This document shows, piece by piece, positions 33,093-56,053 of a stretch of 56,847 nucleotides of DNA. The stretch is from positions 1 to 56,847 of the forward strand of contig JACROP010000108.1 in assembly GCA_016214385.1 (NCBI GenBank). Direction: 5' to 3'. Position 1 is the stretch's first letter; every line of letters starts with the position of its first letter. The notes under the pieces were generated by a model. That model searched no databases and was not told the DNA's origin. It was given only the letters and a program-made list of their open reading frames with translations. Position numbers and translations under genes: made by a program. This DNA comes from Nitrospirota bacterium (GTDB lineage: Bacteria > Nitrospirota > Thermodesulfovibrionia > UBA6902 > JACROP01).

Positions 33093-33332
33093 ATGCCTGA
33101 TATCCAACCTGACGTAACATTAGATTGTAAGGGGCTTAGCTGCCCGATGCCTGTGCTAAAGGCAAAAAAGGCAATAGATGCTATGAAAACTGGACAGGTG
33201 TTACGCGTAGTGGCAACTGACCCAGGTTCAAAGGCCGACATTCCCGCTTTACTGAGAAGAACAGGCAATGAACTAATCGAAACAAAAGAAGAAGGCAATA
33301 CCTTTATTTTTTTGATAAAAAAGACGGTTTAA
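33093..33332 (+). CDS. tusA: TusA/SirA-family sulfur carrier
   Basis: 79 aa. 'LDCKGLSCPMPVLKAKKAI' CPxP motif. Confidence 0.88.
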   Translation: MPDIQPDVTLDCKGLSCPMPVLKAKKAIDAMKTGQVLRVVATDPGSKADIPALLRRTGNELIETKEEGNTFIFLIKKTV

Positions 33333-33598
33333 TTTGATAATTCCCTGTAGCTTGCTGCAGGGTAGTTCATTTAGCACTGATATTTCAGGAGTTTATAAAT
33401 AGATAAATTTTTCTAATTTGACCTCTTTTACAATGTAAATTTAAAATTAGCTGTTTGTTTAATATTTTGAATTTTGGGATTATTATTTCTTATGGAAAAA
33501 TCGCATCTGTGTTTTTCAATTGTCTTACTAACGGTTGCATATCCATGTCTTATTTAAAATTTAAGGGTCATGTCCAAATTAATGAAGATGGTAATATT

Positions 33599-33732
33599 AA
33601 TGTCCTATGTCTCCTGTGGTTGTCATTCCGCACTTGATGCGGAATCCAGTATTTTGTACGTCTCTGGATTCCCGTTCCCCGATTACTACCTTCGGGGACA
33701 AGCTTCACGGGAATGACGAAATATAGGACATT
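33599..33732. repeat. GTCATTCC palindromic repeat, copy B (composite/nested)
   Basis: Terminal inverted ends are 'AATGTCCTAT' and 'ATAGGACATT'. The inner sequence is 'GTCATTCCGCACTTGATGCGGAATCCAG ... CTGGATTCCCGT[tccccgattactaccttcgggga]...CACGGGAATGAC'. Confidence 0.8.
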
Positions 33733-33796
33733 TCTTATGCAGTTTTCAATAGTCGGAGAATTAAGAGGATTCAAGGGGTCAAGGGATAAATAAGTA

Positions 33797-33875
33797 ATAA
33801 ATCAAAATGCAAAATTCAAAATGCAAAATTAAGGAATTCCATTATTTTGATATTTGATTTTTGATTTTGCTTGAA
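33797..33875. repeat. Tandem-heptamer hairpin (CAAAATG/CAAAATT arms)
   Basis: 'atcaaaatgcaaaattcaaaatgcaaaatt' is opposed by 'attttgatatttgatttttgattttgc'. It lies about 60 nt upstream of the dsrA RBS. Confidence 0.7.
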
Positions 33876-33931
33876 CCCTTTTTAGCAATTTTTTGGGAGA
33901 AGAACCAAATTTAAGTTTAAGGAGGGCGTTT

Positions 33932-35113
33932 ATGAGTAAGAAGTATGACACACCGTTGTTGGATGAGCTGGAAAAAGGTCCGTGGCCGAGCTTTGTAAAA
34001 GAGATTAAGAAGGCCGCAAAAAAGAGTGAAAGAGCAGCAGATGAATTAGGCCAGGTTGAGAAGTCTTACAAAACAAAGAGAGGTTACTGGAAGCACGGTG
34101 GTATTGTTGGTGTCCTCGGCTACGGGAGCGGAGTTATCGGGAGATATTCTTCCCTGCCAGAAGAATTTCCCGGAGTGGCTCATTTCCATACCGTGAGAAT
34201 AAACCAGCCCAGTGGTTGGTTCTACACAACAAAGGCGTTAAGAGAGATGTGCGATATGTGGGATAAATATGGTAGCGGGCTTACTAACATGCATGGCTCC
34301 ACAGGTGACATGATACTTCTCGGCACGAATACAGAAAGTCTCGAGCCCATTTTTGCCGAGTTTTCATCCCGCGGATGGGATCTCGGCGGCTCTGGCTCTG
34401 CGATGAGGACTCCGAGCTGCTGTGTTGGTCCTGGCCGCTGTGAATGGGCGAATATAGATACCCTCGATATTAACTATGCCCTTACACAGGAATTTCAGGA
34501 TGAACTTCACAGACCGTCATTCGCGTATAAATTTAAAATAAAGACCGCAGGTTGTGCTGTTGACTGTATCGCCGCAATTGCACGTGCTGATTTATCTATT
34601 ATCGGGACATGGAAAGGCGATATAAAGATCGACCAGGCTGAAGTAAAGAACTATGCTAAAAATGGAATGGACATCAATGCCGAGATAGTTGATATGTGTC
34701 CAACAGGTTGCATGAGTTATGACGGTAAGAAACTAAAGATAGAAGATGAGGACTGTAACAGATGTATGCACTGTATAGCAAAGATGACAAAGGCCCTCAG
34801 GCCTGGCGATGAAAGGGGCGCAACCCTCCTTATCGGGAGTAAAGCCCCGATTGTTGTGGGCGCAATGCTTTCGTGGGTCGTTGTGCCATTCATAAAGCTT
34901 GAGCCTCCGTATCAAGAATTGAAGGACCTTATCCGCAAGATTTTAGAGTGGTGGGATGAGAACGGAAAGGCCAGGGAGAGGATAGGGGAGGTCATAGAAC
35001 ACAAAGGCATGAGGTCATTCCTTGAGTATGTTGGTCTTCCACCAGTTCCCCAGATGATTAAGGAACCGAGAAGAGACCCGTTCTTCTTCTGGGCAGAGAA
35101 AGATTTAAAATAA
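33932..35113 (+). CDS. dsrA: Dissimilatory sulfite reductase alpha subunit
   Basis: The start at 33932 follows AAGGAGGG. '[22 protein letters not shown]', siroheme/FeS Cys clusters ('[10 protein letters not shown]', 'CAVDC') and a ferredoxin insert ('CPTGCM...CNRCMHC'). Confidence 0.95.
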
Positions 35114-35136
35114 AAATCTTAAAGGAGGAATAATAA

Positions 35137-36207
35137 ATGTCATTACCACAGAGAAAAACAGATATAGGGCCGCCTCATTATAAGCAGTTTCTTCCACCTG
35201 TAATCCAGAAGAATTATGGCCAGTGGAAGTATCACGAAGTGCTGGACCCCGGAACAATGGTGCATGTGGCGGAAAGCGGTGATAAGATATACACCGTGAG
35301 AGTTGCATCGCCGAGGCTTTTAAGCACTGATACTATCCGTGAGATCAGCGATATTGCAGATAAATACTGCGAAGGCTATCTTCGCTTTACCAGCAGAAAC
35401 AACATAGAGTTTCTCGTATCAGATAAGAGTAAGGTTGAGCCTCTTAAAAAAGAACTCAAAGACAAAGGCTACACTGTTGGAGGTATAGGCCCGAGGGTGA
35501 GCAATGTTGTTCATACTCAGGGATGGATTCACTGTCACAGTGCCTGCACCGATGCCTCTGGTCTGGTAAAGGCCATGATGGATGAACTTTACGATTACTT
35601 TACTACAAAAGAGCTCCCTAACAAGGTGAGGCTGGCAGTGGCGTGCTGTGTTAATATGTGTGGAGCTGTTCATTGTTCAGACATAGCCATAGTCGCTGTT
35701 CACAGGAAAGTACCAACGATAGACCATGGAAGGTTAGCGAATGTGTGCGAAATCCCTACAACCATAGCGTCCTGCCCCACACATGCTATAAGCCCTGACC
35801 CTGCAAAGAAAAGTGTAAAGATTAATCCTGACAGGTGCATGTACTGCGGAAACTGCTTTACTGTCTGTCCGCCAATAGATATCCATGACCCTGAAAATGA
35901 TGGTGTTGCCATAGTGGTGGGTGGAAAGGTCGGCAGCCTGAGGAGCAATCCAAAATTCTCCAAGCTCGCAATTCCTTTCTTTTACAACGAACCTCCACGG
36001 TGGCCAAAGGTTGTTGCTGCTGTAAAGAACATCCTTGAAACTTATGCCAGGCATGCAAAGCAACATGAAAGGGTAGGCGAGTGGATAGAGAGAATTGGCT
36101 GGGAAAAGTTCTTCAAGCTTACAGGCATTGAGTTTACATTCCAGCATATTGACGATTTCAAATTTGCCCGTGAGACCTTCAGGACAGCGGCGACATTTAA
36201 ATGGTAA
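35137..36207 (+). CDS. dsrB: Dissimilatory sulfite reductase beta subunit
   Basis: '[13 protein letters not shown]', 'CHSACTD', '[13 protein letters not shown]' and 'CPTHAI...[12 protein letters not shown]'. Confidence 0.95.
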
Positions 36208-36216
36208 ACTATAGTA

Positions 36217-36257
36217 GAGGTTGAGGTTGAGAGATACTTAACCTTAACCTCAACCTC
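36217..36257 (+). repeat. Tandem-heptamer hairpin between dsrB and dsrD
   Basis: 'gaggttgaggtt' (36217-36228) pairs perfectly with 'aacctcaacctc' (36246-36257). It lies immediately before the dsrD RBS AAGGAGG. Confidence 0.7.
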
Positions 36258-36274
36258 AATAAGGAGGTGGAGGG

Positions 36275-36520
36275 ATGGAGAAGGAAGAGATAAAACAGAA
36301 GATTTATGAATTATTAGAAAAATCAAAGGGCAAGAAAAAACTCAAAGAGAAAGATGTGATTAAAGCCATATCCGAGGAGACAGGAGTTGATAAGGACACT
36401 GTAAAGAAGGCTCTAAGAGAGATGATAGATGTTGGAAAAGTGATGTATTCGTATTCTGGCGGTGCCAGCTCTGTGGAGATCCCGAGTGAAGAGTACCTCA
36501 AAGAAAAAGGCCTTCTCTGA
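36275..36520 (+). CDS. dsrD: DsrD
   Basis: 81 aa, K/E-rich winged-helix-like, with a 'YSYSGGASS' motif analogous to the DsrD 'YWSSGSTT' motif. It lies directly after dsrB. Confidence 0.8.
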   Translation: MEKEEIKQKIYELLEKSKGKKKLKEKDVIKAISEETGVDKDTVKKALREMIDVGKVMYSYSGGASSVEIPSEEYLKEKGLL

Positions 36521-36568
36521 AGAAGTGAGAAGTGAGAACTTAACTTCCCATTTTCTACTTCCCACTTT
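36521..36568 (+). repeat. Tandem-heptamer hairpin between dsrD and dsrN
   Basis: 'gaagtgagaagtgagaac' is opposed by 'cttcccattttctacttcccacttt'. It is an imperfect stem, and the one mismatch checked in the best-matching stretch is A·C on the plus strand. Confidence 0.6.
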
Positions 36569-36571
36569 CAT

Positions 36572-38155
36572 ATGCTTAATTATTCAATTCCGAGGGTAGT
36601 TGTAGCAGGCCTCAGTGGCGGATGTGGTAAGACCATCCTTTCCATTGCCCTGATAGCGGCGTGGAGAAAAAAAGGCTTTAAAGTAGTCCCATTTAAGAAG
36701 GGGCCAGATTATATCGATGCGGGCTGGTTGGCCTCAGCAGCAGGCCAGCCCTGTTATAATCTGGACCCTTTTTTAATTGGTAAAGAGCAGCTTCTTTGTT
36801 CATTTGTAGAACACGCTTATGGAGCTCGGATTGCTGTTATTGAGGGCAACAGGGGCCTTTATGATGGTTTTGATGCTGAGGGCACTTACAGCACAGCCGA
36901 ACTTGCCAAATTGCTTCAAACACCTGTTATCGTAGTCATGGATTGCACAAAGGTAACACGCACTGCTGCTGCTCTGGTCCTGGGGCTCCAGAAATTTGAT
37001 CCATCAGTAAAGATTAAAGGTGTAATCTTGAATCAGGTTGCAGGTAAGCGACATGAATCTATATTGCGTGCAACAATAAATAAATACTGTAATGTGCCTG
37101 TATTGGGGGCTGTCCCAAAGCTGAAAGAGGCGACCTTGCCTGAGAGACATATGGGCCTTACCCCTTATCAGGAACACCCTGAAGTTGAAAAGGCTATTTC
37201 CGCTATCTTAGAGATAGCGCAGAATTATCTTGATTTAGATGAGATATGGAAGATTGCTAATGGGGCAGTGCCGCTTAAGGCAGAGACAAGAGACAAGAGA
37301 CAAGAGACCAATTCAGTGACAAGAGACAAGGGACAAGAGACAAGTAAATATAATAACTCGTCACTCGTCACTCGTCTCTCGTCTCTTGAAAAGTCACTCG
37401 TCACTCGTCACTCGTCTCTGGAAAAGTCACTCGTCTCTGAGCCTGCCCTGAGCCTGTCGAAGGGCCACTCGTCACTAAGAATCGGCGTTATCAAAGATAC
37501 TGCTTTCCAGTTTTATTATCCTGAAAACTTTGAGGAACTCGAAAGGCGTGGTGTCAGGATAGTTGAGATGAGTGCCCTAACAGAGAAAGAGCTTCCTGAC
37601 ATCGATGCCCTTTACATCGGTGGTGGTTTCCCTGAAACCCATGCAATAACCATTGCAGAGAATACTAATTTTCCAAACTCCCTGCGACAGGCCATTGAAA
37701 ATGGGCTCCCTGTTTATGCTGAGTGTGGAGGCTTGATGTATCTGGGGGAAAGCCTTGTATTAGAAAATAAAACATATCCTATGGCCGGTGTGCTGCCAGT
37801 GGTTTTCGGTCTGGAAAAGAGGCCCCAGGCACATGGATATTCAATAATAGAGGTAGATATGCCCAATCCATATTTTAGGACAGGCACTATTTTAAAAGGC
37901 CATGAATTTCATTATTCGAGTATTTTAGAGTTCAAAGAAAAAAATGGGGTATATACTGCTTTTAAAATGAAACGTGGACTTGGGATAATAGATAAAAGGG
38001 ATGGGTTGTGCTACAGGAATGTCTTAGCTACATATACCCATGTTCACGCCCTTGGGACGCCTGAATGGGTAGAGGGTATTATCAGCAGCGCAATAATGTA
38101 TAGAAAGCAAAGGAGTTTAGACGGTGGAGATAAAATTACTGAATTAACTAACTGA
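36572..38155 (+). CDS. dsrN: DsrN (cobyrinate a,c-diamide synthase-like amidase)
   Basis: CbiA ATPase domain ('GLSGGCGKT') and GATase domain ('AECGGLMYL'), downstream of dsrABD. A ~65-aa repeat-derived insert lies in the interdomain linker. Confidence 0.88.
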   Translation: MLNYSIPRVVVAGLSGGCGKTILSIALIAAWRKKGFKVVPFKKGPDYIDAGWLASAAGQPCYNLDPFLIGKEQLLCSFVEHAYGARIAVIEGNRGLYDGFDAEGTYSTAELAKLLQTPVIVVMDCTKVTRTAAALVLGLQKFDPSVKIKGVILNQVAGKRHESILRATINKYCNVPVLGAVPKLKEATLPERHMGLTPYQEHPEVEKAISAILEIAQNYLDLDEIWKIANGAVPLKAETRDKRQETNSVTRDKGQETSKYNNSSLVTRLSSLEKSLVTRHSSLEKSLVSEPALSLSKGHSSLRIGVIKDTAFQFYYPENFEELERRGVRIVEMSALTEKELPDIDALYIGGGFPETHAITIAENTNFPNSLRQAIENGLPVYAECGGLMYLGESLVLENKTYPMAGVLPVVFGLEKRPQAHGYSIIEVDMPNPYFRTGTILKGHEFHYSSILEFKEKNGVYTAFKMKRGLGIIDKRDGLCYRNVLATYTHVHALGTPEWVEGIISSAIMYRKQRSLDGGDKITELTN

Positions 38156-39409: not shown

Positions 39410-39510
39410 GGAGGAGAAAGTTTTAGAGGAGAAAACCGATAAAGATGTCCCATGGGGCTGATTTCAAAAGAGGATAATTTAAATAAAATATCAACAGGAG
39501 GGACTTATAG

Positions 39511-40398: not shown

Positions 40399-40400
40399 CC

Positions 40401-41678: not shown

Positions 41679-41689
41679 AGGAGGCGTTT

Positions 41690-42055: not shown

Positions 42056-42453
42056 ACGAACAGATACAGCAAGAGACTCCCGAGGAAAGATTACCGAAGA
42101 ATTACTGTGTTTTCCGTGTGGACAAAAAGGAGTTTACCCTGCTGCTGAGCGAGGTAAAGGAAATAGTTAAGATTCCTGAGATATTTCCCGTGCCTCTGGC
42201 CCCTGATTATGTAAGGGGGATTATCCAGTTGAGAGGAAGAATAATCCCTGTTGTGGATCTCTTACAGGTGTACGAGGCATATGATACAGGAGAGGTTAGG
42301 TCATCAACTGTAAAGGTGGTAATTGTGGTTGATGCAGGCAGGGGCCTCATAGGGTTTCTCTCAGAAGACCTTCCGAGCCTTGTTGATGAGATGAGCGGGG
42401 AAGGGATAGATATCGCTGAGTTTTTTGATGCCCTGAGGGTAAGGGAGACCTGA
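42052..42453 (+). CDS. cheW: CheW-like coupling protein
   Basis: 133 aa. 'VFRVDKKEFTLLLSEVKEIVKIPEIFPVPLAPDYVRGIIQLRGRIIPVVDL'. It has an ATGA overlap with cheY. Confidence 0.85.
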   Translation: MNEQIQQETPEERLPKNYCVFRVDKKEFTLLLSEVKEIVKIPEIFPVPLAPDYVRGIIQLRGRIIPVVDLLQVYEAYDTGEVRSSTVKVVIVVDAGRGLIGFLSEDLPSLVDEMSGEGIDIAEFFDALRVRET

Positions 42454-44702: not shown

Positions 44703-44729
44703 GATCCTTCGTTGCTTTGCTCCTCAGGA

Positions 44730-44776
44730 TAACTAAAACCAAATGTTAAACGATATATTTGGTTTTAGTTATTTTA
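44730..44776. terminator. Bidirectional hairpin terminator between cheA and the MCP gene
   Basis: A perfect 15-bp stem, 'taactaaaaccaaat' (44730-44744) with 'atttggttttagtta' (44757-44771), and a 12-nt loop. A T-run follows on the plus strand. Confidence 0.6.
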
Positions 44777-46531
44777 GAAGCTTACCTTTCCAGATATCTC
44801 TGGTTGTCCGGGTAGTTTAAATGTTCCAACTGCATCGAGGAGCCCTTTTGATGTCGCTGAGAGGCTCTCAGAAATGGACGAAGAGTCTTTTACCATTTTC
44901 AACATCTGCATGGATATCCTGTTCACCTCTTCCATTGCAATAACAACTTTAGCGGAAAGTCCCTTCTGATTGGTAGCAGTATCGTATATTTCCGAAATTA
45001 TGCGACTTGTATTGTTAATAGCGTTTTTAATATCTTCAAATGCATCACCTGTATCTTTTGCTATATTAGTTCCATGCTCCACGAGCCTTGTTTCTTCCTC
45101 AAGGGTAGTGGTTACCTCACCTGCAACCAATTGGATGGCATTTATCACTTCACCTATCTGTTTTGTAGCTGATGCTGACCTGTCTGCAAGCTCCCTTATC
45201 TGTTCCGCGATAATAACAAATCCCTTGCCCTGTTCTCCGGCCCTTGCGGCTTCGATGGATGCATTCAGGGCGAGAAGGTTTGTCTGAAATGCAACATCAC
45301 TGATCAGTTTTGATATGGTCTCTATCTCCATTAATCTCTCTGAAAGGTTTTTCATCTTTTTATTGATAGATTGAACTGTTACTCTTATAATCTGTATCCC
45401 ATCAATACTTTCTGTAACGAGCTTGTCACCCTTTTCTGCAGCCCCTGAAGTTTCTGAAGATATATCCTGGGCAGTCTTTGTCTTTTCAGATATATCGATG
45501 ATTGAGTTTATTGTTTCATCAACGTTTCCTGTAGCCTTTTTTACTTCTGCCATCTGTGTCTCTGCGCCTTTACCCATCTCTCGTAGCATTAAAAGCATTT
45601 TCTGGCTTTCCTGGCCAACTTTAGTAGTGGACATTCTTACATTGTTAAGTAATTCAGACAGTCCTTCGATCATGAGGTTGTATGCGTCAGCAATAGAGCC
45701 GAAGAGGTCTGCTGTCACTGGCGCTTTCTGAGAAAGGTCGCCTTCTGAGGCAGAACTGATAATGTTTAACATATATACAAGGCCTTCCTGGGTCTTTTTT
45801 CTTTCCGCTCCTGTCTGGGTCTGAGCCCTCAGCGTTTCTATGCTGTTATTTATAGCCGTGGCAAGTGCTCCAAACTCATCCTTAGATCTAACAGTTGCCG
45901 TAACGCTGAAGTCTCCTTTACTGAGAGCCCTCGTAGCCCCTATAAGTTCCACAAGTGGTCTGGTAATTTTTCCGGATACGAGGATTGACAGAGGTATTAT
46001 TATGGAGAAAATTATTGCCATAGCTATAAGAAAGTCCGTAATCTCTGCGTTTAAGGCATCCAGGAGGGTAAATTCCTTTATTCCCAGACGAATTATTCGA
46101 CCTTTACCTGCAGGCGCTGCAATGTCCAGTATGAGGTTACCTCTGGGGTCTTCCCATTTATTTGTAGATATTCCTTCTGTTGGCGCCTTCAATGTCTCTA
46201 AAACCTTTGGCACATCTTTTGGAAAAGTATGGGCTAAAACACTGCCTTTGTCGTCTTGAATAACGCAGTACGCAAAGTCTTTATCCATTGCCAGTGTTTT
46301 CTTCACGATTTCGGTTAGAGGCAGTTCAGCACTGCTTGCAAGGGCGGATGTGAGGTTTGAACTGGTGGTTGAGACAACGATAGTCCCTTTTTTAAGGTTT
46401 GTCTCTTGTGTATTTTTCTGTATTTTAAGGAGATGATAAGCAAATACTAAGATGCTTGCTAAGGAGATTACTACAATAAAGATTAATAAAATTTTTGATC
46501 TCACACCCAACCCTGTTTTAAGTTCTGCCAT
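44774..46531 (-). CDS. Methyl-accepting chemotaxis protein (2 TM, periplasmic sensor, HAMP)
   Basis: 'FQTNLLALNASIEAARAGEQGKGFVIIAEQIRELADRS' signalling hairpin, a HAMP domain after TM2, and a ~130-aa periplasmic domain. Confidence 0.9.
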   Translation of the reverse strand: MAELKTGLGVRSKILLIFIVVISLASILVFAYHLLKIQKNTQETNLKKGTIVVSTTSSNLTSALASSAELPLTEIVKKTLAMDKDFAYCVIQDDKGSVLAHTFPKDVPKVLETLKAPTEGISTNKWEDPRGNLILDIAAPAGKGRIIRLGIKEFTLLDALNAEITDFLIAMAIIFSIIIPLSILVSGKITRPLVELIGATRALSKGDFSVTATVRSKDEFGALATAINNSIETLRAQTQTGAERKKTQEGLVYMLNIISSASEGDLSQKAPVTADLFGSIADAYNLMIEGLSELLNNVRMSTTKVGQESQKMLLMLREMGKGAETQMAEVKKATGNVDETINSIIDISEKTKTAQDISSETSGAAEKGDKLVTESIDGIQIIRVTVQSINKKMKNLSERLMEIETISKLISDVAFQTNLLALNASIEAARAGEQGKGFVIIAEQIRELADRSASATKQIGEVINAIQLVAGEVTTTLEEETRLVEHGTNIAKDTGDAFEDIKNAINNTSRIISEIYDTATNQKGLSAKVVIAMEEVNRISMQMLKMVKDSSSISESLSATSKGLLDAVGTFKLPGQPEISGKVSF

Positions 46532-46886: not shown

Positions 46887-47222
46887 ATGGGGACAATTGA
46901 GTTTCAAAGCAAGAGTTATGAGGTTGATGAGGATGGTTATCTTCAGAATCTGGATGACTGGAGTCCTGAGTTAGCCAATTTTATTGCAGAAAAAGAAGGA
47001 ATCCAGATGAGCGAGGCACACTGGGAGGTTGTCAATTTCCTCAGGGACTATTACCAGAAATACCAGATTGCTCCAATGATAAAGATCCTTGTCAAAGAAA
47101 TAGCTAAGGTTATGGGGCCCGAAAAAGGCAACACAAAATACCTTTATGAGCTTTACCCTGGTGGCCCTGCAAAGCAGGCATGTAAGATAGCCGGACTTCC
47201 GAAACCAACAGGTTGCGTGTAA
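46887..47222 (+). CDS. dsrC: DsrC (TusE/DsrC family)
   Basis: 111 aa. 'VDEDGYLQNLDDW', 'HWEVVNFLRDYY' and a C-terminal arm 'CKIAGLPKPTGCV' with both conserved Cys. Confidence 0.95.
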   Translation: MGTIEFQSKSYEVDEDGYLQNLDDWSPELANFIAEKEGIQMSEAHWEVVNFLRDYYQKYQIAPMIKILVKEIAKVMGPEKGNTKYLYELYPGGPAKQACKIAGLPKPTGCV

Positions 47223-47400
47223 GTTTAGTCCTTAGGGAATAAGCAATATCGAGGATCCGTACCGGAGGGAACGAGCACCGGGATTTTATTTTTCTACCGT
47301 TACGTTTAACCAAAACTATCAAGGATAGGAAAGGGTATTCCATTCTCATGGTGAAAACTATTGTTAACAGTGAGGCGGTAAGGAGCAGTAGCTTCCTGAT

Positions 47401-47961
47401 ATGAAGCTCTCGACCCTCCTGTCAGCAAAGAGATCTGTTATTTTGGAAAAGTGGTTTGCTGAGATACTGGATACTTATCCATCTGCCACCTCAAGTTTTT
47501 TAAAGAAGCAAAAGGACCCATTCACTAATCCAGTGGGGCGAAATATCCTCCAGGGGATAGAGGGTCTTTTTGATGAGCTCCTCCATGGGGTGAGGCCTGA
47601 CAAGGCTTCTCCATTTCTTGATAATATTATCAGAATCAGAGCGATTCAGGATTTTACGCCCTCGCAGGCCATATCCTTTATTTTCTTTCTAAAAAAAGTG
47701 ATAAGAGAAGAGTTGAAAAATGATCCTGCCCTGAATTCAATTCAGGATAATTCAGGACTCGAAAACGGAATTGCTGAGGAGTTGCTGACACTTGAGGATA
47801 AAATAGATGACCTGGCCCTTCTGGCCTTTGATATTTATATGAAATGCCGGGAGAAGATTTATGATCTCAAGGCAAATGAGGTGAAAAATATGACCTTCGG
47901 GCTATTGAAACGAGCGAAGCTGATACGTGATTCTGAATTTAATTCAGGACAGAGACAGTAA
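47401..47961 (+). CDS. dsrT: DsrT-like protein (RsbRD N-terminal-like domain)
   Basis: 'ILEKWFAEILDTYPS...KDPFTNPVG' matches my recollection of DsrT. It lies immediately upstream of dsrM. Confidence 0.6.
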   Translation: MKLSTLLSAKRSVILEKWFAEILDTYPSATSSFLKKQKDPFTNPVGRNILQGIEGLFDELLHGVRPDKASPFLDNIIRIRAIQDFTPSQAISFIFFLKKVIREELKNDPALNSIQDNSGLENGIAEELLTLEDKIDDLALLAFDIYMKCREKIYDLKANEVKNMTFGLLKRAKLIRDSEFNSGQRQ

Positions 47962-47997
47962 TATCTGAATCTCAAATAAAATTAAAAGAGGGTAAAA

Positions 47998-48990
47998 ATG
48001 GGAGCCATATTCTCTTTCTTTGCAGTTATAATACTTGTCCTGCTTGCTTTTATTGGGGTAGGGGCAGCAAATTTACACTTTCTCTTTGGTGTTATTATCC
48101 CATACGCAGCTTTTGTAACATTCACCCTTGGGATTATTTATCGTGTCATTAAATGGGCGCGTTCCCCTGTCCCTTTCCGTATACCGACAACAGGTGGGCA
48201 GCAGAAATCTCTCCCCTGGATCAAGCAGAATAAACTTGATAATCCCTCCAGCACCCTTGGTGTTGTAGGAAGGATGGCTCTTGAAGTGCTTTTTTTCCGT
48301 TCTCTATTCAGAAACACAAAAACAGAATTGCGGGAAGGGCCAAAGCTCGCTCATGGCTCTGACAAGTGGCTCTGGTTAGCAGGCATAGCATTTCACTGGT
48401 CTTTTCTAATAATCTTACTCAGACACATCAGACTTTTTGCCGAACCTTCGCCTTTTTATTTGTATGTCCTTGAAAGCCTTGATGGTTTTTTGCAAATTGG
48501 CGCACCACGCCTATTTATGACAGGCATAATCCTTTTGCTGGCTGTAACCTATCTCTTCCTCAGAAGGCTATATATTCCTCAAGTCCGTTATATCTCCCTT
48601 GCTTCTGATTATTTCCCCCTCTTTTTGATTTTAGGTATAGCTGCAACAGGCATCCTTATGCGGTATTTCTTCAAAGTGAATGTGGTCGGTGTGAAAGAAC
48701 TGACCATGGGATTGGTTAATTTTAATCCGAAGATTCCGCAGGGAATCGATGTTATATTTTATATCCATCTTTTCCTTATCAGCGTCCTGTTTGCCTACTT
48801 CCCATTCAGCAAGCTGGTGCACATGGCTGGAGTCTTCCTCAGTCCTACGAGGAACCTCGCAAATAACAATCGCATAGTTAGACATATTAATCCATGGAAT
48901 TATCCTGTTAAGGTTCATACATATGAGGAGTACGAGGATGAATTCAGAGGAAAAATGAAACAATCTGGGATACCAGTAGAGAAGGAGTGA
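47998..48990 (+). CDS. dsrM: DsrM (NarI-like dihaem b membrane subunit)
   Basis: Polytopic membrane protein with conserved His in its helices. It is the first gene of the dsrMKJOP order. Confidence 0.85.
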   Translation: MGAIFSFFAVIILVLLAFIGVGAANLHFLFGVIIPYAAFVTFTLGIIYRVIKWARSPVPFRIPTTGGQQKSLPWIKQNKLDNPSSTLGVVGRMALEVLFFRSLFRNTKTELREGPKLAHGSDKWLWLAGIAFHWSFLIILLRHIRLFAEPSPFYLYVLESLDGFLQIGAPRLFMTGIILLLAVTYLFLRRLYIPQVRYISLASDYFPLFLILGIAATGILMRYFFKVNVVGVKELTMGLVNFNPKIPQGIDVIFYIHLFLISVLFAYFPFSKLVHMAGVFLSPTRNLANNNRIVRHINPWNYPVKVHTYEEYEDEFRGKMKQSGIPVEKE

Positions 48991-48994
48991 GAAT

Positions 48995-50620
48995 ATGGCA
49001 ACGAAGGCAAAACCACCAAAACCAGAAGATCTGTCAAAGATAGACTATAAACCTCCTAAGACAAAGTGGATGGATACGCCTGCTGAATTCAAGCCTGGCA
49101 TGTATTGCTATGGTACGAGACCTAAATATCTCGAGGCAGTTGACTTTCCAAACCCAAGGGAGTGGTCGTCTTCTGAGGAGGACTGGAAGCTACCTGAAAA
49201 CTGGAAAGAGATAGTGTTAGAAGGGATTAAAGAACGGCTGAGCAAGTACCGCACCTTTCATATATTTATGGATATCTGTGTGAGGTGTGGTGCCTGTGCT
49301 GACAAGTGCCATTTCTTCCTCGGCTCAGGAGACCCAAAGAATATGCCTGTTTTGAGGGCTGAACTTATAAGGTCGGTGTATAGGAAGTATTTTACAGGAT
49401 CAGGAAAAATTCTGGGTAAGCTTGCTGGCGCAAGAGAACTCACGTATGATGTGCTAAAGGAGTGGTGGTATTATTTCTACCAGTGCACCGAATGTCGGCG
49501 CTGCTCTCTTTTCTGCCCGTACGGTATTGATCAGGCTGAAATCACGATAATTGGCAGGGAACTTCTCAATCTACTGGGTCTGAATACAGACTGGATTGCT
49601 GGCCCTGTGGCGAATTGTTATAAAAAGGGTAATCACCTCGGCCTTGAGCCACATACACTCAAAAGTAACATAGAATTTATGATAGATGATATAGAAACCA
49701 TTACAGGGATCAGGATTGAGCCAACCTTTAACAGAAAGGGTGCTGAGATTCTCTTTGTTACGCCTTCCGGAGACCTCTTCGGTGACCCTGGCATTTACAC
49801 AGCAATGGGCTATCTCATGCTTTTCCATGAACTTGGACTTGACTACACCTGGAGCACATATGCTTCTGAGGGCGGTAATTTCGGCTTTTTCACATCAAAT
49901 GAGATGGCGAAAAGACTTCATTACAAGATATATGCTGAGGCAAAGCGGTTGAAGGTAAAGTGGATACTTGGAGGAGAATGTGGCCACATGTGGAGGCTTG
50001 TTCACCAATACCTGGACACATGGCACGGACCTGCAGATTTTCTTGAGGTACCTGTTTCACCAGTAACCGGCACAAAATTTGAGAATGCAAAATCCGCAAG
50101 GATGGTTCACGTTGCTGAATTTGCTGCTGACCTCATCAGGCATGGCAAACTAAAACTTGACCCGAGACGAAACGACCATCTAAAAGTGACCTGGCATGAT
50201 TCCTGTAACACCGCCAGAGGTATGGGAATTCTTGAAGAGCCCCGATATATCATCAAGAATGTATGCAACTATTTCTATGAGATGCCAGACAATACCATCA
50301 GGGAGAGAACCCTCTGCTGTGGTAGTGGTTCAGGCTTAAATGCAGGAGAAAATATGGAATTAAGGATGAGGGGAGGATTCCCCAGAGCAAATGCTGTGAA
50401 GTATGTTCGTGAAAGATACGGGGTGAATATACTGGCGAATATGTGTGCCATTGATAGGGCTGCCCTTCCACCGCTGATGGATTACTGGGTTCCTGGTGTG
50501 CGTGTGGCGGGCCTTCACGAGCTGGTGGGGAATGCATTGGTAATGAAGGGAGAAAAAGAGAGGACAACCGACTTACGCCTTGAACCCCTTCCAGGGAAGG
50601 AGGCAAAGGAAGATGTATAA
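48995..50620 (+). CDS. dsrK: DsrK (HdrD-like FeS/CCG-domain subunit)
   Basis: 'CVRCGACADKC', 'CTECRRCSLFCP' and CCG-type motifs ('HDSCNTARG', 'CCGSGSG'). Confidence 0.9.
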   Translation: MATKAKPPKPEDLSKIDYKPPKTKWMDTPAEFKPGMYCYGTRPKYLEAVDFPNPREWSSSEEDWKLPENWKEIVLEGIKERLSKYRTFHIFMDICVRCGACADKCHFFLGSGDPKNMPVLRAELIRSVYRKYFTGSGKILGKLAGARELTYDVLKEWWYYFYQCTECRRCSLFCPYGIDQAEITIIGRELLNLLGLNTDWIAGPVANCYKKGNHLGLEPHTLKSNIEFMIDDIETITGIRIEPTFNRKGAEILFVTPSGDLFGDPGIYTAMGYLMLFHELGLDYTWSTYASEGGNFGFFTSNEMAKRLHYKIYAEAKRLKVKWILGGECGHMWRLVHQYLDTWHGPADFLEVPVSPVTGTKFENAKSARMVHVAEFAADLIRHGKLKLDPRRNDHLKVTWHDSCNTARGMGILEEPRYIIKNVCNYFYEMPDNTIRERTLCCGSGSGLNAGENMELRMRGGFPRANAVKYVRERYGVNILANMCAIDRAALPPLMDYWVPGVRVAGLHELVGNALVMKGEKERTTDLRLEPLPGKEAKEDV

Positions 50621-51011
50621 TGGCGGAAAGATTATCATTGGACTTATTATCTTTTTAGCCTTTGTAGCATTTCCTTTATACTACAATATTGGGAAGGTTA
50701 GTGTTAAACCAGAACCAAAGCTTGATACCTCTGTCATCCAGCAATTGAAGGAAAAGAAGTGTGTTGAGCCAAAAGCCTATATGAAGGCTGAGCACATGAA
50801 GTTGTTGAATGAATGGAGAGATTCAGCTGTGCGGGATGGCAATAGGCTCTATATTAACAGTGAAGGGAAGCAGTTCACAATAAGCCTCCAGAATACATGC
50901 ATGAAATGCCATTCAAATAAGAAGAAATTTTGTGATGAATGCCATAATTACGCAGCAGTAAAACCTTACTGCTGGGATTGCCATATTGCGCCAAAGGAGA
51001 AGGAGATATGA
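50613..51011 (+). CDS. dsrJ: DsrJ (trihaem cytochrome c)
   Basis: The start at 50613 follows GAAGGAGG and overlaps dsrK by 8 nt. There is a signal anchor and three CxxCH motifs (CMKCH, CDECH, CWDCH). Confidence 0.88.
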   Translation: MYNGGKIIIGLIIFLAFVAFPLYYNIGKVSVKPEPKLDTSVIQQLKEKKCVEPKAYMKAEHMKLLNEWRDSAVRDGNRLYINSEGKQFTISLQNTCMKCHSNKKKFCDECHNYAAVKPYCWDCHIAPKEKEI

Positions 51012-51808
51012 GCATCAGTAGAAGAGAATTCCTAAAGATAGCAGGAGCCTCTGCCATTTTCGGATTAGGTGGGATGGCGATAATAAATGAAATCACAGAT
51101 GATATAGAGGCATCGCAATTCTCCCCAGGGCCCGATGCCTTAATAGCCAAAAGGTGGGCCATGGTCGTTGATATGAGGAAATTTAAAACAGAAGAGGATT
51201 ACAGAAAGATTATAGAGGCTTGCCACAGCATCCACAATGTTCCTGATTTTGGCAATCCAAAGGATGAGATTAAATGGATCTGGACTGACACCTTTGAGCA
51301 TGCCTTCCCCGGGCAGGAACATGAATATATGGAGGAGAAATTAAAGCGAATGCCCTTTGTTCTATTATGCAACCACTGTGATAATCCACCTTGTGTAAGG
51401 GTATGTCCTACAAAAGCTACATTCAAGAGAAAAGACGGAATCGTTATGATGGATCAGCACCGCTGTATCGGATGCAGATTCTGCATGGCTGCCTGCCCCT
51501 TTGGAGCGAGAAGTTTCAACTGGAGAGACCCCAGGGGTAAAGATGATAAAGGACGGCCTTTTATCAAGGAGGAGAATAAGGAATATCCAACAAGGACAAA
51601 AGGTGTTGTGGAAAAATGCACCTTATGCTTTGAGAGACTTGCCAAAGGTCTTAAACCAGCATGTGTGGAGGCATCCAATGGAGCATTGATTTTTGGAGAC
51701 TTAAAGGAACCTAACTCAGAGGTTAGGAAGGTGCTCAGCACAAATTATACTATAAGACGTAAAGCCGAACTTGGGACAATGCCCAGTGTTTTCTACATAA
51801 TAGGATAG
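51008..51808 (+). CDS. dsrO: DsrO (Tat-exported 4Fe-4S ferredoxin-like subunit)
   Basis: Tat signal 'SRREFLKIAGASAIFGLG', plus 'CNHCDNPPCVRVCP' and 'CIGCRFCMAACP'. It has an ATGA overlap with dsrJ. Confidence 0.9.
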   Translation: MSISRREFLKIAGASAIFGLGGMAIINEITDDIEASQFSPGPDALIAKRWAMVVDMRKFKTEEDYRKIIEACHSIHNVPDFGNPKDEIKWIWTDTFEHAFPGQEHEYMEEKLKRMPFVLLCNHCDNPPCVRVCPTKATFKRKDGIVMMDQHRCIGCRFCMAACPFGARSFNWRDPRGKDDKGRPFIKEENKEYPTRTKGVVEKCTLCFERLAKGLKPACVEASNGALIFGDLKEPNSEVRKVLSTNYTIRRKAELGTMPSVFYIIG

Positions 51809-51820
51809 GAGGTAGCAATA

Positions 51821-52993
51821 ATGCTTGAAAAGGCGCTAACTGGAAGTCGAAGATACTGGATCTGGATATTCGCTCTACTTGCGATAACAGGGATAGGTTT
51901 TATTTTCTACCTTAAGCAGCTTAGTTATGGTTTGGGGATAACAGGCATGAGCAGAGATGTTTCATGGGGTTTATATATAGGCCAGTTTACCTTCCTTGTG
52001 GGTGTTGCAGCCTCGGCAGTTATGGTGGTCCTGCCTTATTATCTGCATAACTATAAAGTTTTTGGGAAGATAACAATATTAGGAGAGTTTCTGGCTGTCC
52101 CCTCTGTGGTTATGTGCATGTTATTTATCTTTGCGGATATGGGCCAGCCAATGAGGTTTATGAACATATTCTTGCATCCCACACCTAATTCGGTCATGTT
52201 CTGGGATGCGATGGTCCTGGGTGGTTATCTTCTGCTTAATATCGTGGTCGGTTGGGCTGTTTTGGGTGCAGAGCGTAAAGATGTACCACCGCCAAATTGG
52301 GTAAAACCTTTCATATATCTATCAATCGCATGGGCCCCCAGCATTCACATAGTGACGGCCTTCCTGTACTCTGGCCTTCCCGGAAGGGATTTCTGGCTAA
52401 CAGCAATCATGGCAGTCCGTTTTCTTGCCTCAGCGTTTGCTTCCGGGCCATCCCTCATTATCATCCTATGTCTGATTGTAAGAAGGTTCACGAAATTCGA
52501 TCCTGGCAGAGAGGCTATTCAAGCCCTGGGAAAGATCGTTACTTATACCATGATTCTAAATGTACTCTTCCTTGGATTTGAATTCTTCACTGCCTTCTAC
52601 AGCCGAATACCGGGGCACATGCATACTTTCGAATACCTATACTATGGTATAGAAGGGTATGGAAGGCTTATTCCCTTGATGTGGACATCAGCTATCCTTG
52701 CAGTCTTCTCTCTTATTCTTTTGATTAACCCCGCAACACGCAGAAATGAGAAAACCCTGGCAATGGCTTCTGCAGCAGTGTTCATGTCTTTATGGATCGA
52801 AAAGGGATTTGGTCTGGTTGTGGGCGGATTCATCCCCAATCCTTTTGAAAAAATAACAGAGTATTGGCCAACGATGCCTGAAACAGTAATCACTATTGGG
52901 GTCTGGGCAATTGGGTTTCTGATACTAACTGTTCTTTACAAGATAGCTGTCTCAGTTAGAGAAGAGACAGTGGGCATCGAAGTTGATCGCTAA
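51821..52993 (+). CDS. dsrP: DsrP (NrfD/PsrC-like membrane subunit)
   Basis: 390-aa polytopic protein downstream of dsrO. Confidence 0.88.
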   Translation: MLEKALTGSRRYWIWIFALLAITGIGFIFYLKQLSYGLGITGMSRDVSWGLYIGQFTFLVGVAASAVMVVLPYYLHNYKVFGKITILGEFLAVPSVVMCMLFIFADMGQPMRFMNIFLHPTPNSVMFWDAMVLGGYLLLNIVVGWAVLGAERKDVPPPNWVKPFIYLSIAWAPSIHIVTAFLYSGLPGRDFWLTAIMAVRFLASAFASGPSLIIILCLIVRRFTKFDPGREAIQALGKIVTYTMILNVLFLGFEFFTAFYSRIPGHMHTFEYLYYGIEGYGRLIPLMWTSAILAVFSLILLINPATRRNEKTLAMASAAVFMSLWIEKGFGLVVGGFIPNPFEKITEYWPTMPETVITIGVWAIGFLILTVLYKIAVSVREETVGIEVDR

Positions 52994-53311: not shown

Positions 53312-53402
53312 AATGTCCTATTTACTGATAGTGCTGTCATTCCCCGACTTAAAATCTGGATTCCCGATTAAGACCTTCGGGAATGACAAAAAAGCGGACA
53401 TT
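53312..53402. repeat. GTCATTCC palindromic repeat, copy C
   Basis: Ends 'AATGTCC' and 'GGACATT'. Core 'GTCATTCCCCGACTTAAAATCTGGATTCCCGATTAAGACCTTCGGGAATGAC'. Confidence 0.8.
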
Positions 53403-53465
53403 ATTTATGCGTAAGTCAATAATTGAGGGAAGAATTAAAATTAAATTTACAGGAGGATAAAGACT

Positions 53466-53651
53466 GTGTGGATTGTTGTAGTTGATAAAGAAAAATGTGA
53501 TGGCAAAGGGGAATGTGTTGATGTTTGCCCTTCAGGTGTTCTAAAGATAACTGATGGGAAGGCTGATCCATTTAATGTTGATGAGTGTGTAGGCTGTATG
53601 AGCTGTGTAGAAGTCTGTCCCACCGGTGCTATCACAGTTACCGAGGCATAG
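53466..53651 (+). CDS. 2x[4Fe-4S] ferredoxin (paralogue of 53039-53233)
   Basis: 'CDGKGECVDVCP' and 'CVGCMSCVEVCP'. The GTG start lies 9 nt after AGGAGG. Confidence 0.85.
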   Translation: MWIVVVDKEKCDGKGECVDVCPSGVLKITDGKADPFNVDECVGCMSCVEVCPTGAITVTEA

Positions 53652-53660
53652 AGATTAATA

Positions 53661-53694
53661 AAAAAGGGCAGCCGGATAGTCTGCCCTTTTTTTA
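53661..53694. terminator. Bidirectional rho-independent terminator
   Basis: 'aaaaagggcag-ccggatagt-ctgcccttttttt'. An 8-bp GC-rich stem is flanked by A and T runs, between convergent genes. Confidence 0.75.
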
Positions 53695-53706
53695 TTGTGG
53701 TTTTCT

Positions 53707-53958
53707 TTACGACTTAAGGATATAAAGCTCCCAGTAACCTTTATCTTCGAGCTTAACAGTCTCCAGGCTATAGCCCTGTTTTTCGCAGAACCGTGGTATT
53801 GTGTCCTCTACAGATGCTGGCGCATCAGCTAATACCTTTAAGACCTGCCCTGAACCGAGTTTCTCCATAGCCTTTTTAACCATCACAAGGGGATAAGGGC
53901 AAACCCTTCCTAAAACATCGAGTTCCTGGGCCGGTGTTATTGATTTAATATCTGTCAT
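53707..53958 (-). CDS. tusA: TusA/SirA-family sulfur carrier (second copy)
   Basis: 'LDVLGRVCPYPLVMVKKAMEKL' CPxP motif. Confidence 0.85.
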   Translation of the reverse strand: MTDIKSITPAQELDVLGRVCPYPLVMVKKAMEKLGSGQVLKVLADAPASVEDTIPRFCEKQGYSLETVKLEDKGYWELYILKS

Positions 53959-53973
53959 TTTACATCCTCCTTT

Positions 53974-54384
53974 TTAAAAACAGAGTAAGTGTTTTGAAGT
54001 TTCCATTTCTTTCATAATCTCAACAAAGGGCGCTACGTTTATGCTCGACTCTGCCCCCATATCGGCAGCATCAGCTAACCTGTCATGGGAGATGCCAAGT
54101 CTCTCAAGGTCTTCCTTACACACAATCACCTTTATATCAAGGAGCAGGGAGTTTTTAACATGGGTTTCCGTGCTCGTTGTATCATATGTCTGTATAGATT
54201 TCTGGTCCTTGAGACAGTTTAAGACACCGTCTCCGACAAAGGCCAGAACTGGGGTTACTGTCTCTCCCTCCTCAAGGAACAAATCCACGGTCTGATATGA
54301 TATGGCGTGGGTTATAGCGAGTCTTGGGTTCTCACTTTTATACGGGGGTCTTTGAACTAAAAATAATAATTTTGTATCGGCCAT
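53974..54384 (-). CDS. DsrE/TusD-like protein
   Basis: 'LLFLVQRPPY', 'FVGDGV' and 'VIVCKEDLERLGI', where the Cys sits at the position of the DsrE/TusD active-site Cys. Confidence 0.65.
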   Translation of the reverse strand: MADTKLLFLVQRPPYKSENPRLAITHAISYQTVDLFLEEGETVTPVLAFVGDGVLNCLKDQKSIQTYDTTSTETHVKNSLLLDIKVIVCKEDLERLGISHDRLADAADMGAESSINVAPFVEIMKEMETSKHLLCF

Positions 54385-54743
54385 TATTCACCTCCTATAT
54401 GCAGAACTCTGTCACTATTGGCAATCTTTGCTAAATACCAGTGCATGGCGTCCCACCGAATGCCCTCGATAGTATCTTCCTTATGAATTCCTCTCGCCAG
54501 GGTGCATGCCTCACAGGTAGTTATCTCCACCCCTTTTGACAGAAGCTCCCTGATTGATTTTTCAAGATGAGAGTAATCTTTGAAGGCTTTCTGCCCTTTT
54601 TTTGCAAGCATTGTGGCGTTTCCGGACAGCCAGATATTTACTTTATGACCCTTATTTACTGCAGCAGTTGACAATTTTGCAACAAAATCAAGGCTCATGG
54701 AGCCAACAAGAGATGAAAAAGTGCCTATGGTTAATGTAGCCAT
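54384..54743 (-). CDS. DsrE/DsrF-family protein
   Basis: 119 aa. 'VNIWLSGNA' and 'ITTCEACTLARGI'. It overlaps the downstream DsrE-like gene by 1 nt. Confidence 0.55.
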   Translation of the reverse strand: MATLTIGTFSSLVGSMSLDFVAKLSTAAVNKGHKVNIWLSGNATMLAKKGQKAFKDYSHLEKSIRELLSKGVEITTCEACTLARGIHKEDTIEGIRWDAMHWYLAKIANSDRVLHIGGE

Positions 54744-54753
54744 TTTATCCCTC

Positions 54754-55056
54754 CTAAAGCCAGGCTAATTGTTCGTAATCGTTCATAATTAAATCAACCA
54801 GTCCATCATAGGTTATGACCTTTATTTTTTTATCAACCAGGTTATTCTCTGAAAGCCCTCTCGTCTGAAGGTCCTCCAGAAGGGCGTAATAATTGGCCCC
54901 TTGAATCTTCAGGACAGGACTAATTTCACCGTTAAACTTCAGCGTAGCATGATAGATGCCGTTGCTGACGAGGAAGATGCCGAATTTTTCGGCCTTAAGC
55001 CGCTCAATAGTGTTTTCGGTTCTTCTGAGGTCGCTGAGAAAGACTCCAAGCTTCAT
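54754..55056 (-). CDS. DsrH/TusB-like protein
   Basis: The likely start is the ATG at 55056, after GGAGGTG. 'IFLVSNGIYHA', 'YALLEDLQTRGL' and a C-terminus ending '...LAWL', as in TusB/DsrH. Confidence 0.55.
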   Translation of the reverse strand: MKLGVFLSDLRRTENTIERLKAEKFGIFLVSNGIYHATLKFNGEISPVLKIQGANYYALLEDLQTRGLSENNLVDKKIKVITYDGLVDLIMNDYEQLAWL

Positions 55057-55240
55057 TTTTTTCACCTCCATGGGAATATTATTGATGAACAGCACATAAG
55101 TTTATACACTCATGCCATGTTTTGTCAAGGAAACCAAGGCATAATAAGAGAAATTGACACCACTTCCCCTCTGTTGTTTTTGTAAATTAAGAGTTAATAT
55201 AGTTAACAGCCGATGGTCAGAAGTTAGGCAGGGAGGCAGA

Positions 55241-56053
55241 ATGATTATGTCTTATTCAGGGAAGTTAAAGAGGTCTTTTAAAAAAATCTTATTGTTGACA
55301 TTCATTGCTGTTATTGCCGCACTTGCTTTTTATCTATTGAGCCTGCCAGATGTATCAAAATTAAAAAAGGAAAACCCCGGCAAGACCTCTTTTATGCAAT
55401 ACAGGGAAAAGGAATGGAGGAAAGAAGGCAGGAAATACAGGATAAACCAGATATGGGCGCCGCTATCGAATATCTCCCCGTATCTTATAAAGGCAGTGCT
55501 TATTGGAGAGGATGACAAGTTCTGGAGACATGAGGGTTTTGATTACGAGGCAATCCAGAAAGCCCTTGAAAAGGATTTAAAAAAGAAGCGCTTAGCCTTT
55601 GGCGGAAGCACCATAAGCCAGCAGCTCGCAAAAAACCTTTATCTTTTACCTTCTAAAAACCTGTTCAGGAAAATCAAAGAGGCACTAATTACATGGAAGA
55701 TTGAAAGGTCTCTCTCTAAAAGCCGTATACTCGAGCTGTATTTAAATGTGGTCGAATGGGGAGATGGAGGGATCTTTGGCATTGAGGCGGCATCGAGGCA
55801 TTATTATGGGAAGCCTGCCTCTGAGCTCAGTCCAGTAGAGGCATCGAGGCTTGCAGCGGTTCTTCCAAACCCGAGGAGGTTTAGTCCACTCGGAGACTCC
55901 AGATATGTTGTCAGCCGTTCGAGGCTTATATACAGCATAATGGTCAGACGGGGGATAGTGGAGCCTGGGTATGAAGAACTCACAGATAGAGTAAAAGAAG
56001 ATGCGATTCAACCACCATATGAATTGCCTGTAAGCCCGCTTACTATCCCCTAG
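55241..56053 (+). CDS. mtgA: Monofunctional peptidoglycan glycosyltransferase
   Basis: GT51 motifs 'EDDKFWRHEGFD', 'GGSTISQQLAKN' and 'RILELYLNVVEWG'. The start at 55241 follows GGGAGG. Confidence 0.9.
   Translation: MIMSYSGKLKRSFKKILLLTFIAVIAALAFYLLSLPDVSKLKKENPGKTSFMQYREKEWRKEGRKYRINQIWAPLSNISPYLIKAVLIGEDDKFWRHEGFDYEAIQKALEKDLKKKRLAFGGSTISQQLAKNLYLLPSKNLFRKIKEALITWKIERSLSKSRILELYLNVVEWGDGGIFGIEAASRHYYGKPASELSPVEASRLAAVLPNPRRFSPLGDSRYVVSRSRLIYSIMVRRGIVEPGYEELTDRVKEDAIQPPYELPVSPLTIP

Follow-up and report, generated by a model that had tools for sequence, protein, structure and literature searches.

DsrEFH and DsrD serve widely as genomic markers by which uncultured organisms are called sulfur oxidisers or sulfate reducers. 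A second kind of complex, DsrEFH "type II", was described in 2026 for the YTD cluster (yedE-tusA-dsrE), in which a protein resembling DsrE, together with two hypothetical ones, forms a DsrEFH-like complex (Plum-Jensen et al., ISME J, PMC13293266; BMC Genomics, PMC13047784). Type II occurs in 985 genomes, most of which have reductive dsrAB, and its authors propose that it lets sulfate reducers oxidise sulfur (PMC13293266, PMC13047784). In vitro, sulfur passes from TusA to Cys67 of DsrE and on to DsrC (PMC13293266). For the class Thermodesulfovibrionia the combination "dsrFH but no dsrE" was noted in 2024 (PMC11033732). Here we analyse a minus-strand operon at positions 53707-55056 of a 56,847-nucleotide stretch, the window, from a Nitrospirota bacterium of this class (GCA_016214385.1, contig JACROP010000108.1). 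It codes for DsrH-, DsrE- and DsrF-like proteins and for TusA beside a dsr locus. We consider it probable that the operon encodes a DsrEFH-type complex with a dedicated TusA, predicted to act as a cytoplasmic persulfide (sulfane-sulfur) relay serving the Dsr system of the organism. The general concept of a DsrEFH-like relay in organisms with a reductive-type Dsr system is already published, and the H-E-F family studied here has at most been touched on in earlier work. The paradox that a first-pass annotation of the window saw in dsrD next to a DsrEFH-like module is outdated, since such modules were described together with reductive-type DsrAB in the 2026 studies.

The H-E-F-tusA operon and its tie to dsr genes

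The four genes form a tight operon in the order H-E-F-tusA (Table 1). The families proposed for them in the first-pass annotation are borne out by Pfam and NCBIfam matches: three DsrE/F/H-family members and a TusA. The best NCBIfam matches are to TusB/DsrH, TusD/DsrE, TusC/DsrF and TusA, all of them under their equivalog cut-offs (E, 19.1 versus 89.25 bits for TIGR03012; F, 23.5 versus 94.15 bits for TIGR03010; H, 46.0 versus 49.2 bits for TIGR03011). The H-like protein has DsrH of Allochromatium vinosum (2HY5_C) as its best sequence match in the PDB. The family profile of the 119-amino acid protein, built from 20 orthologues, matches Escherichia coli YchN (CKTC) and A. vinosum DsrE, and its C77 aligns with Cys78 of the latter (2HY5_A). 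The 136-amino acid protein matches TIGR03010 TusC/DsrF best in NCBIfam (E 4e-5). A single-sequence search of the PDB with this protein gives nothing meaningful, and only the family profile and an AlphaFold2 model placed it. The profile and A. vinosum DsrF align over their whole length, with C89 at the position of the DsrF Asp. The model (predicted local distance difference test, pLDDT, 87) has the DsrE/F fold, and its top Foldseek matches are DsrE, YchN, TusD and DsrF, chains of 2HY5 and 2D1P being among them; the search does not separate E from F.

Profile-profile comparisons were made with three reference sets: canonical dsrEFH, lying beside dsrAB and dsrL, from another Nitrospirota family; a second DsrEFH-like cluster of the same genome; and a YeeE-linked DsrE-like module. 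The subunits pair cleanly E-E, F-F and H-H. Against the canonical type I set hhalign gives 96% for E, 48-64% for F and 96% for H; against the second cluster (contig C112) it gives 98%, 96% and 97%, and that cluster holds the closest relative of each window subunit. Profile evidence thus identifies the 119-amino acid protein as the DsrE equivalent and the 136-amino acid "VIVC" protein as the DsrF equivalent. From the clean pairing and the profile alignments it follows that the order is H-E-F-tusA. The first-pass annotation had swapped the E and F labels, and its order H-F-E, the reverse of the canonical one, was wrong. The F-like family is small and isolated: of 1.84 billion cluster representatives, no more than 35 match it at E <=1e-3. 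Its next relatives outside are Vibrio TusC sequences (E ~1e-4).

The candidate sulfur-carrying residues are strongly conserved. C77 and C80 of the E subunit (C77-E-A-C80) are found in all 22 orthologues, as is C89 of the F subunit, while C57 of F is kept in 21 of 22. TusA has C20 within CPYP (V-C20-P-Y-P) in 21 of 21 orthologues. The H subunit is free of cysteine, and a search for an equivalent of DsrH Cys20 finds no conserved cysteine column across its 22 orthologues. That one of the DsrE/F proteins keeps an active-site cysteine, as first proposed, is correct for the residue and too narrow in its count, both DsrE-fold proteins carrying a cysteine at that position. Chance or spurious open reading frames are ruled out by the 52-77% identity of the four genes and by their invariant cysteines across classes.

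The module is kept together and follows dsr genes. All 19 related Nitrospirota loci (species genomes) have H-E-F; tusA follows the F-like gene in 18 of them, a ferredoxin gene lies alongside in 17, and eight run on into dsrPOJKM-T. An even sample of 401 Nitrospirota genomes was surveyed across the phylum. Of these, 158 have the F-like gene and 204 have dsrA. In 152 of the 158, dsrA accompanies the F-like gene, and only six of the 197 dsrA-negative genomes carry the F-like gene (odds ratio 93, Fisher p 6e-56, uncorrected for shared ancestry).

The module is found in several unrelated arrangements. At least 34 genomes of a sister class have dsrABDNC-fd-HEF-dsrTMKJOP on one strand, with the F-like gene 5.1-6.2 kb from dsrA and the ferredoxin gene (fd) directly upstream of H-E-F. 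One genome has tusA-HEF-tusA-dsrABDNCTMKJOP and another dsrABDN-C-MK-fd convergent with tusA-F-E-H. Distant members lie on contigs that are probably archaeal, to judge by gene content, in the orders HEF-tusA-dsrK-M-C-A-B and HEF-dsrMK. Two further genomes, one of them represented by locus L053, have HEF-(cytochrome)-tusA-yeeE. The notion that family f25 of the sister class represents nitrite-oxidising Nitrospiraceae, in which the trio would have a housekeeping role, was rejected: dsrA lies 5-6 kb from the trio in those genomes. On the probably archaeal contig of locus L059 (GCA_053530635.1, 1408-7749), dsrH-E-F-tusA-dsrK-dsrM-dsrC-dsrA-dsrB-DsrE/DrsE_2 form a single-strand operon, a minimal Dsr system headed by the relay.

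The assembly (2.0 Mb, 43% GC, 99% complete) provides the metabolic setting. The genome search suggested by the first-pass annotation finds sat-aprB-aprA-qmoA and no homologue of SoxB, SoxY or SoxZ. The best matches to DsrL are GltD/NfnB-like proteins encoded elsewhere, and no dsrL lies next to the locus. There are two aprBA pairs (contigs C150:1494-3987 and C161:1002-3364), one in sat-aprBA-qmoA and the other on a 3.4-kb contig; their AprA proteins score 883 and 786 bits, both above the TIGR02061 cut-off. In a genome of the same order (G013, locus L031, 5946-9495), soxB-soxZ-soxY are followed by genes for two signal-peptide-bearing DsrE-like proteins and a thioredoxin; that genome also has the H-E-F-tusA module and dsrABD. 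The genome analysed here further encodes YeeE, TusA and rhodanese proteins, with yeeE-tusA on contigs C70 and C181. Other TusA copies adjoin IscS/IscU and MoeB-type genes, which means that separate TusA proteins are already there for biosynthesis.

The sulfur-relay role on a reductive-looking Dsr system, one of the options of the first-pass annotation, thus emerges as the best reading from the protein families, the co-distribution with dsrA and the sat-aprBA-qmo-dsr set without sox. The module is real, typical of its lineage and coupled to Dsr; it is predicted to act as a DsrEFH-like relay with TusA and may represent a distinct type.

Proposed sulfur flow and alternative readings

By analogy with the in vitro behaviour of DsrEFH types I and II, a persulfide on Cys20 of TusA would be passed to Cys77 of the E subunit, possibly also to Cys89 of F, and from there to CysA of DsrC. 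Zero-valent sulfur would thereby enter the DsrC/DsrMKJOP/DsrAB system. Its source could be elemental sulfur (S0), polysulfide or thiosulfate, mobilised via the YeeE, rhodanese and SQR-like proteins of the genome. Oxidation to sulfite and, via AprBA and Sat, to sulfate would follow, either as the oxidative branch of sulfur disproportionation or in sulfide/sulfur oxidation. The same Dsr proteins, with the DsrD-like protein and DsrT, would also reduce sulfite. That the CxxC motif has a second cysteine and that a ferredoxin neighbour is conserved are hints of a redox-coupled loading or release of the persulfide. As the module nearly always accompanies dsr genes, these apparent sulfate reducers can probably also feed elemental-type sulfur into the Dsr pathway, and, with the first-pass annotation, we infer that their metabolism could be bidirectional or disproportionating.

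Several observations weigh against such a relay role. The direction of sulfur flow cannot be read from sequence. The module of the window is not adjacent to yeeE and its locus has no dsrL alongside. None of the characterised complexes has a counterpart to the CxxC motif or to the extra cysteine of F, which leaves room for a different chemistry. On one probably archaeal contig the genes linked to H-E-F are those for a multihaem cytochrome, TusA and YeeE, and no dsr genes lie close by. Finally, six genomes carry the module without a detected dsrA, and four of these are at least 96% complete.

The trio could simply be a member of the published DsrEFH type II, within its Nitrospirota-rich subtype 1, in which case nothing would be new; on a comparison made by description, this is possible but somewhat unlikely. 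Nitrospirota make up 57% of subtype 1, which resembles type I more than the other subtypes do (PMC13293266). Type II co-occurs with reductive dsrAB, tusA and yeeE and adjoins dsrMK in archaea (PMC13293266), a description that the H-E-F loci fit, and the window H subunit lacks DsrH Cys20 as described for type II. However, the same genome has another module that fits the YTD/type II description better and probably is such a module. It lies on contigs C70:1-3960 and C181 and encodes a 100-amino acid DsrE-like protein with a single cysteine near position 61 (SYCDHN), a 56-amino acid protein, a rhodanese, a PMT_2 membrane protein, YeeE, TusA and a universal stress protein (Usp), its partner of ~95 amino acids being encoded apart (C35:2219-2503). 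The ~95- and 56-amino acid proteins have no family matches, and the small proteins of this module show no profile similarity to F or H of the window. Three small genes of the same kind adjoin each other and H-E-F, divergently transcribed, on two foreign contigs (L056, L059); standing side by side, the two modules are distinct. The window subunits also sum to ~40 kDa, compared with a published heterotrimer of 33 kDa. The hidden Markov models of the authors, used with a cut-off of 80 bits, were seeded from BLAST matches to cable-bacterial proteins (PMC13293266). Searches via YeeE homologues, gene neighbourhoods and a complete genome of a sister family (G316) lead to Nitrospirota loci only, including the 100-amino acid DsrE-like module, and to no named cable-bacterial sequence; a protein search with the 100-amino acid protein likewise lists only Nitrospirota.

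A relay running in the reductive direction is an unlikely reading. The module would take sulfane sulfur from S0, polysulfide, thiosulfate or a DsrC trisulfide/persulfide, and the CxxC motif with electrons from the neighbouring ferredoxin would release sulfide. Its part would then be to assist the reduction of sulfite, thiosulfate or sulfur by reducing persulfides, not to feed oxidation. This fits the invariant CxxC at the active-site position, which resembles CKTC of YchN and UxxC of the second DsrE of the genome, the conservation of the ferredoxin neighbour in convergent and co-directional arrangements alike, and the presence of dsrD-like and dsrT genes, markers of reductive systems, in the same loci. 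Characterised DsrEFH complexes, however, donate sulfur to DsrC, and DsrC gave none back in vitro (PMC13293266). In genomes without H-E-F (L047, L049), too, the ferredoxin gene comes after dsrP; it may thus be part of the dsr set rather than of the relay.

It is very improbable that the operon encodes a relay of the TusBCD/TusA type, used in the biosynthetic thiolation of tRNA (2-thiouridine), molybdopterin or thiamine, and lies near dsr genes only by chance. In favour of this reading, the Joint Genome Institute (JGI) labels homologues "tRNA 2-thiouridine synthesizing protein D" or "DsrF/TusC family", a Vibrio TusC match is the nearest outside relative of the F-like family, and mnmA is present in the genome. 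Against it, the TusD, TusC and TusB equivalog scores given above lie under their cut-offs, as do NF010035 (32.7 versus 104 bits), NF001238 (17.5 versus 79 bits) and NF001237 (15.8 versus 92 bits), 191 of the 197 dsrA-negative Nitrospirota have no module, mnmA sits on another contig, the sole TusE/DsrC homologue is the two-cysteine DsrC within the dsr locus, and dsr operons enclose the trio in four distinct arrangements. The scores and a distribution that follows dsrA thus speak against the tRNA-thiolation assignment that the first-pass annotation had set up as the counter-case.

We retain, as the probable reading, the persulfide relay serving the Dsr system. Should the module deliver sulfane sulfur to DsrC, disproportionation or oxidation of sulfur could also be open to many "sulfate-reducing" Nitrospirota. 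If it proves to be a separate type with additional redox-active cysteines, it would offer a testable handle on DsrC loading in reductive-type systems.

The dsr locus, its DsrD-like protein and transcription signals

The four open reading frames of the operon are all present where the first-pass annotation placed them, and its distances are correct: the stop codon of the ferredoxin gene is 55 nt away and that of dsrP 714 nt. The start codon of the dsrF-like gene overlaps the stop codon of the dsrE-like gene (ATGA). A GGAGGTG ribosome-binding site lies 7 nt upstream of the dsrH-like ATG at 55056. The promoter of Table 1 is the sole promoter-like site found by a consensus scan of positions 53400-55400; it covers an alternative GTG start at 55095, which favours the ATG. 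The GC-rich hairpin between tusA and the convergent ferredoxin gene is able to terminate both transcripts and was missed by the consensus scan because its loop is 9 nt long.

Table 1. Features of the H-E-F-tusA operon and of the dsr locus in the window
Feature	Position	Strand	Evidence or note
dsrH-like gene, 100 aa, first in operon	54754..55056	-	Pfam PF04077 DsrH, E 8e-10
dsrE-like gene, 119 aa	54384..54743	-	Pfam PF02635 DsrE, E 9e-13
dsrF-like gene, 136 aa	53974..54384	-	Pfam DsrE, E 5e-6
tusA, 83 aa, last in operon	53707..53958	-	Pfam PF01206, 82.4 bits, E 2e-23
sigma-70-like promoter, TTGACA-18-TAAACT	55099..55128	-	~40 nt upstream of dsrH-like ATG
bidirectional intrinsic terminator, GGGCAG-loop-CTGCCC with flanking A/T runs	53660..53693	.	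read from sequence
2x[4Fe-4S] ferredoxin, convergent with operon	53466..53651	+	Pfam Fer4 families
tusA (second copy), dsrA, dsrB, dsrD-like, dsrN	33093..38155	+	NCBIfam/Pfam
dsrC, dsrT-like, dsrMKJOP (presumed partner system)	46887..52993	+	NCBIfam equivalogs

The dsr locus reads tusA, dsrA, dsrB, a small gene in the dsrD position, dsrN, a DVU0298-family HEAT protein gene, a chemotaxis-like insert, dsrC, a dsrT-like gene, dsrMKJOP and two ferredoxin genes. The second tusA that the first-pass annotation reported at 33093-33332 is confirmed. DsrA and DsrB match TIGR02064 and TIGR02066 with 557 and 504 bits, respectively, and a CobB-like DsrN is also present. The NCBIfam equivalogs of DsrM, K, J, O and P all score above cut-off, as does the TusE/DsrC family. 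DsrC has two C-terminal cysteines and ends ...ACKIAGLPKPTGCV. DsrA resembles the solved reductive enzymes in the PDB, which holds no oxidative structure for contrast, so this comparison does not separate the types. From the dsrD-like gene, dsrT, the sulfate-reduction equivalogs of DsrMKJOP and the statement made for Thermodesulfovibrionia (PMC11033732) we infer a DsrAB of the reductive type. The insert at 38804-46531, between dsrN/HEAT and dsrC, encodes PATAN-like proteins, a HAMP sensor, REC proteins, CheW, a CheA-REC hybrid and one methyl-accepting chemotaxis protein. In the related loci L051 and L052 the HEAT protein gene is directly followed by dsrC, without this block.

The first-pass description of the locus as dsrD-containing is supported by position and by a winged-helix model and falls short in score. 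The gene at 36275-36520 lies after dsrB, a conserved placement, and its product scores 23.8 bits against the PF08679 cut-off of 24.2. Six orthologues score 17-23 bits, with DsrD as best or near-best family. The structural model is a confident winged helix that matches 1WQ2 and 1UCR (template modelling score 0.65-0.79) among many winged-helix proteins; the search does not discriminate, since the PDB is rich in such folds. The protein is probably a divergent DsrD.

These scores bear on how genomes are classified. The H-E-F and TusA module occurs in ~3/4 of the sampled dsrA-positive Nitrospirota and is missed by standard family cut-offs, and marker-based pipelines will report "no dsrD" for the whole group, whose DsrD-position proteins score 17-24 bits. 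As both the module and the local DsrD fall under standard cut-offs, automated calls are unreliable in both directions for a globally common subsurface and sediment group.

Comparison with described DsrE-family complexes

TusBCD (2D1P) and YchN (1JX7) of E. coli belong to the same fold superfamily as the window trio. YchN shares with the E subunit the CxxC at the same position, but it is a homo-oligomer encoded alone. Unlike TusBCD, the trio has no link to tusE or mnmA and its distribution tracks dsrA.

The second DsrEFH-like cluster of the genome (C112:7550-8970) consists of arsR, dsrE, dsrF, dsrH and a gene for an SQR-family flavoprotein. In its dsrE, an in-frame TGA takes exactly the place of the active-site cysteine (KV(D/Y)L-U-GGC), and the same TGA occurs in at least 25 genomes of the order (loci L025-L029 and L032 among others). 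A stable hairpin follows the TGA (z = -3.25) and selB scores above cut-off. "DsrE-like" is a listed selenoprotein family, and the C112 DsrE is very probably a selenocysteine protein. The E subunit of the cluster shares the xxC spacing with that of the window trio (U-G-G-C versus C-E-A-C). The cluster differs from the trio in its canonical E-F-H order, its probable selenocysteine active site, its ArsR and SQR-family neighbours and its lack of linkage to tusA or dsr genes.

Type I, represented by the A. vinosum complex (2HY5), resembles the window trio in matching subunit folds and in pairwise homology of E, F and H. Its DsrE Cys78 corresponds to C77, and TusA and DsrC are present as partners in both cases. 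The window trio differs in lacking DsrH Cys20, in having a cysteine in F where type I has Asp and in the CxxC of E; none of its subunits reaches the NCBIfam cut-offs. Its genes are ordered H-E-F-tusA and converge on dsrMKJOP-fd, whereas type I genes run E-F-H within an oxidative dsrAB-EFH-C...L cluster. Unlike type I, the module accompanies dsrD-like and dsrT genes, without adjacent dsrL. Canonical dsrEFH-dsrAB-dsrL does occur in a different Nitrospirota family, and the type I proteins of Nitrospirota have a single cysteine in E (VCVAAA), an Asp in F and a Cys20 equivalent in H.

Type II resembles the window trio in being a three-subunit DsrEFH-like complex encoded with tusA in hosts with reductive-type dsrAB. 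Both have a conserved DsrE active-site cysteine, a DsrH-like subunit without Cys20 and the same proposed relay from TusA through DsrE to DsrC. The order H-E-F-tusA differs from (yeeE)-tusA-E-F-H of type II, and yeeE is not found within the locus of the window. H and E of the window are recognised by Pfam and F and H align with canonical DsrF and DsrH, unlike what is described for the cable-bacterial proteins; JGI annotates the F family as DsrF/TusC. Further differences from type II are the CxxC of E, the cysteine at the active-site position of F and the linkage of the module to, or its embedding in, dsr operons. The separate YTD-like module coexists with H-E-F in the same genome. We tentatively propose, as one possibility, that H-E-F forms a third DsrEFH type that has not been described so far and is distinct both from type I and, by description, from the coexisting YTD/type II module. 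It would be a relay wired into dsr operons of the reductive type, in Nitrospirota as well as in some lineages that are probably archaeal (HEF-tusA-dsrKMCAB). With two cysteine sites per trimer, the CxxC in E and the cysteine in F, it could load or unload DsrC in a redox-coupled, possibly ferredoxin-linked manner instead of by a plain persulfide hand-over.

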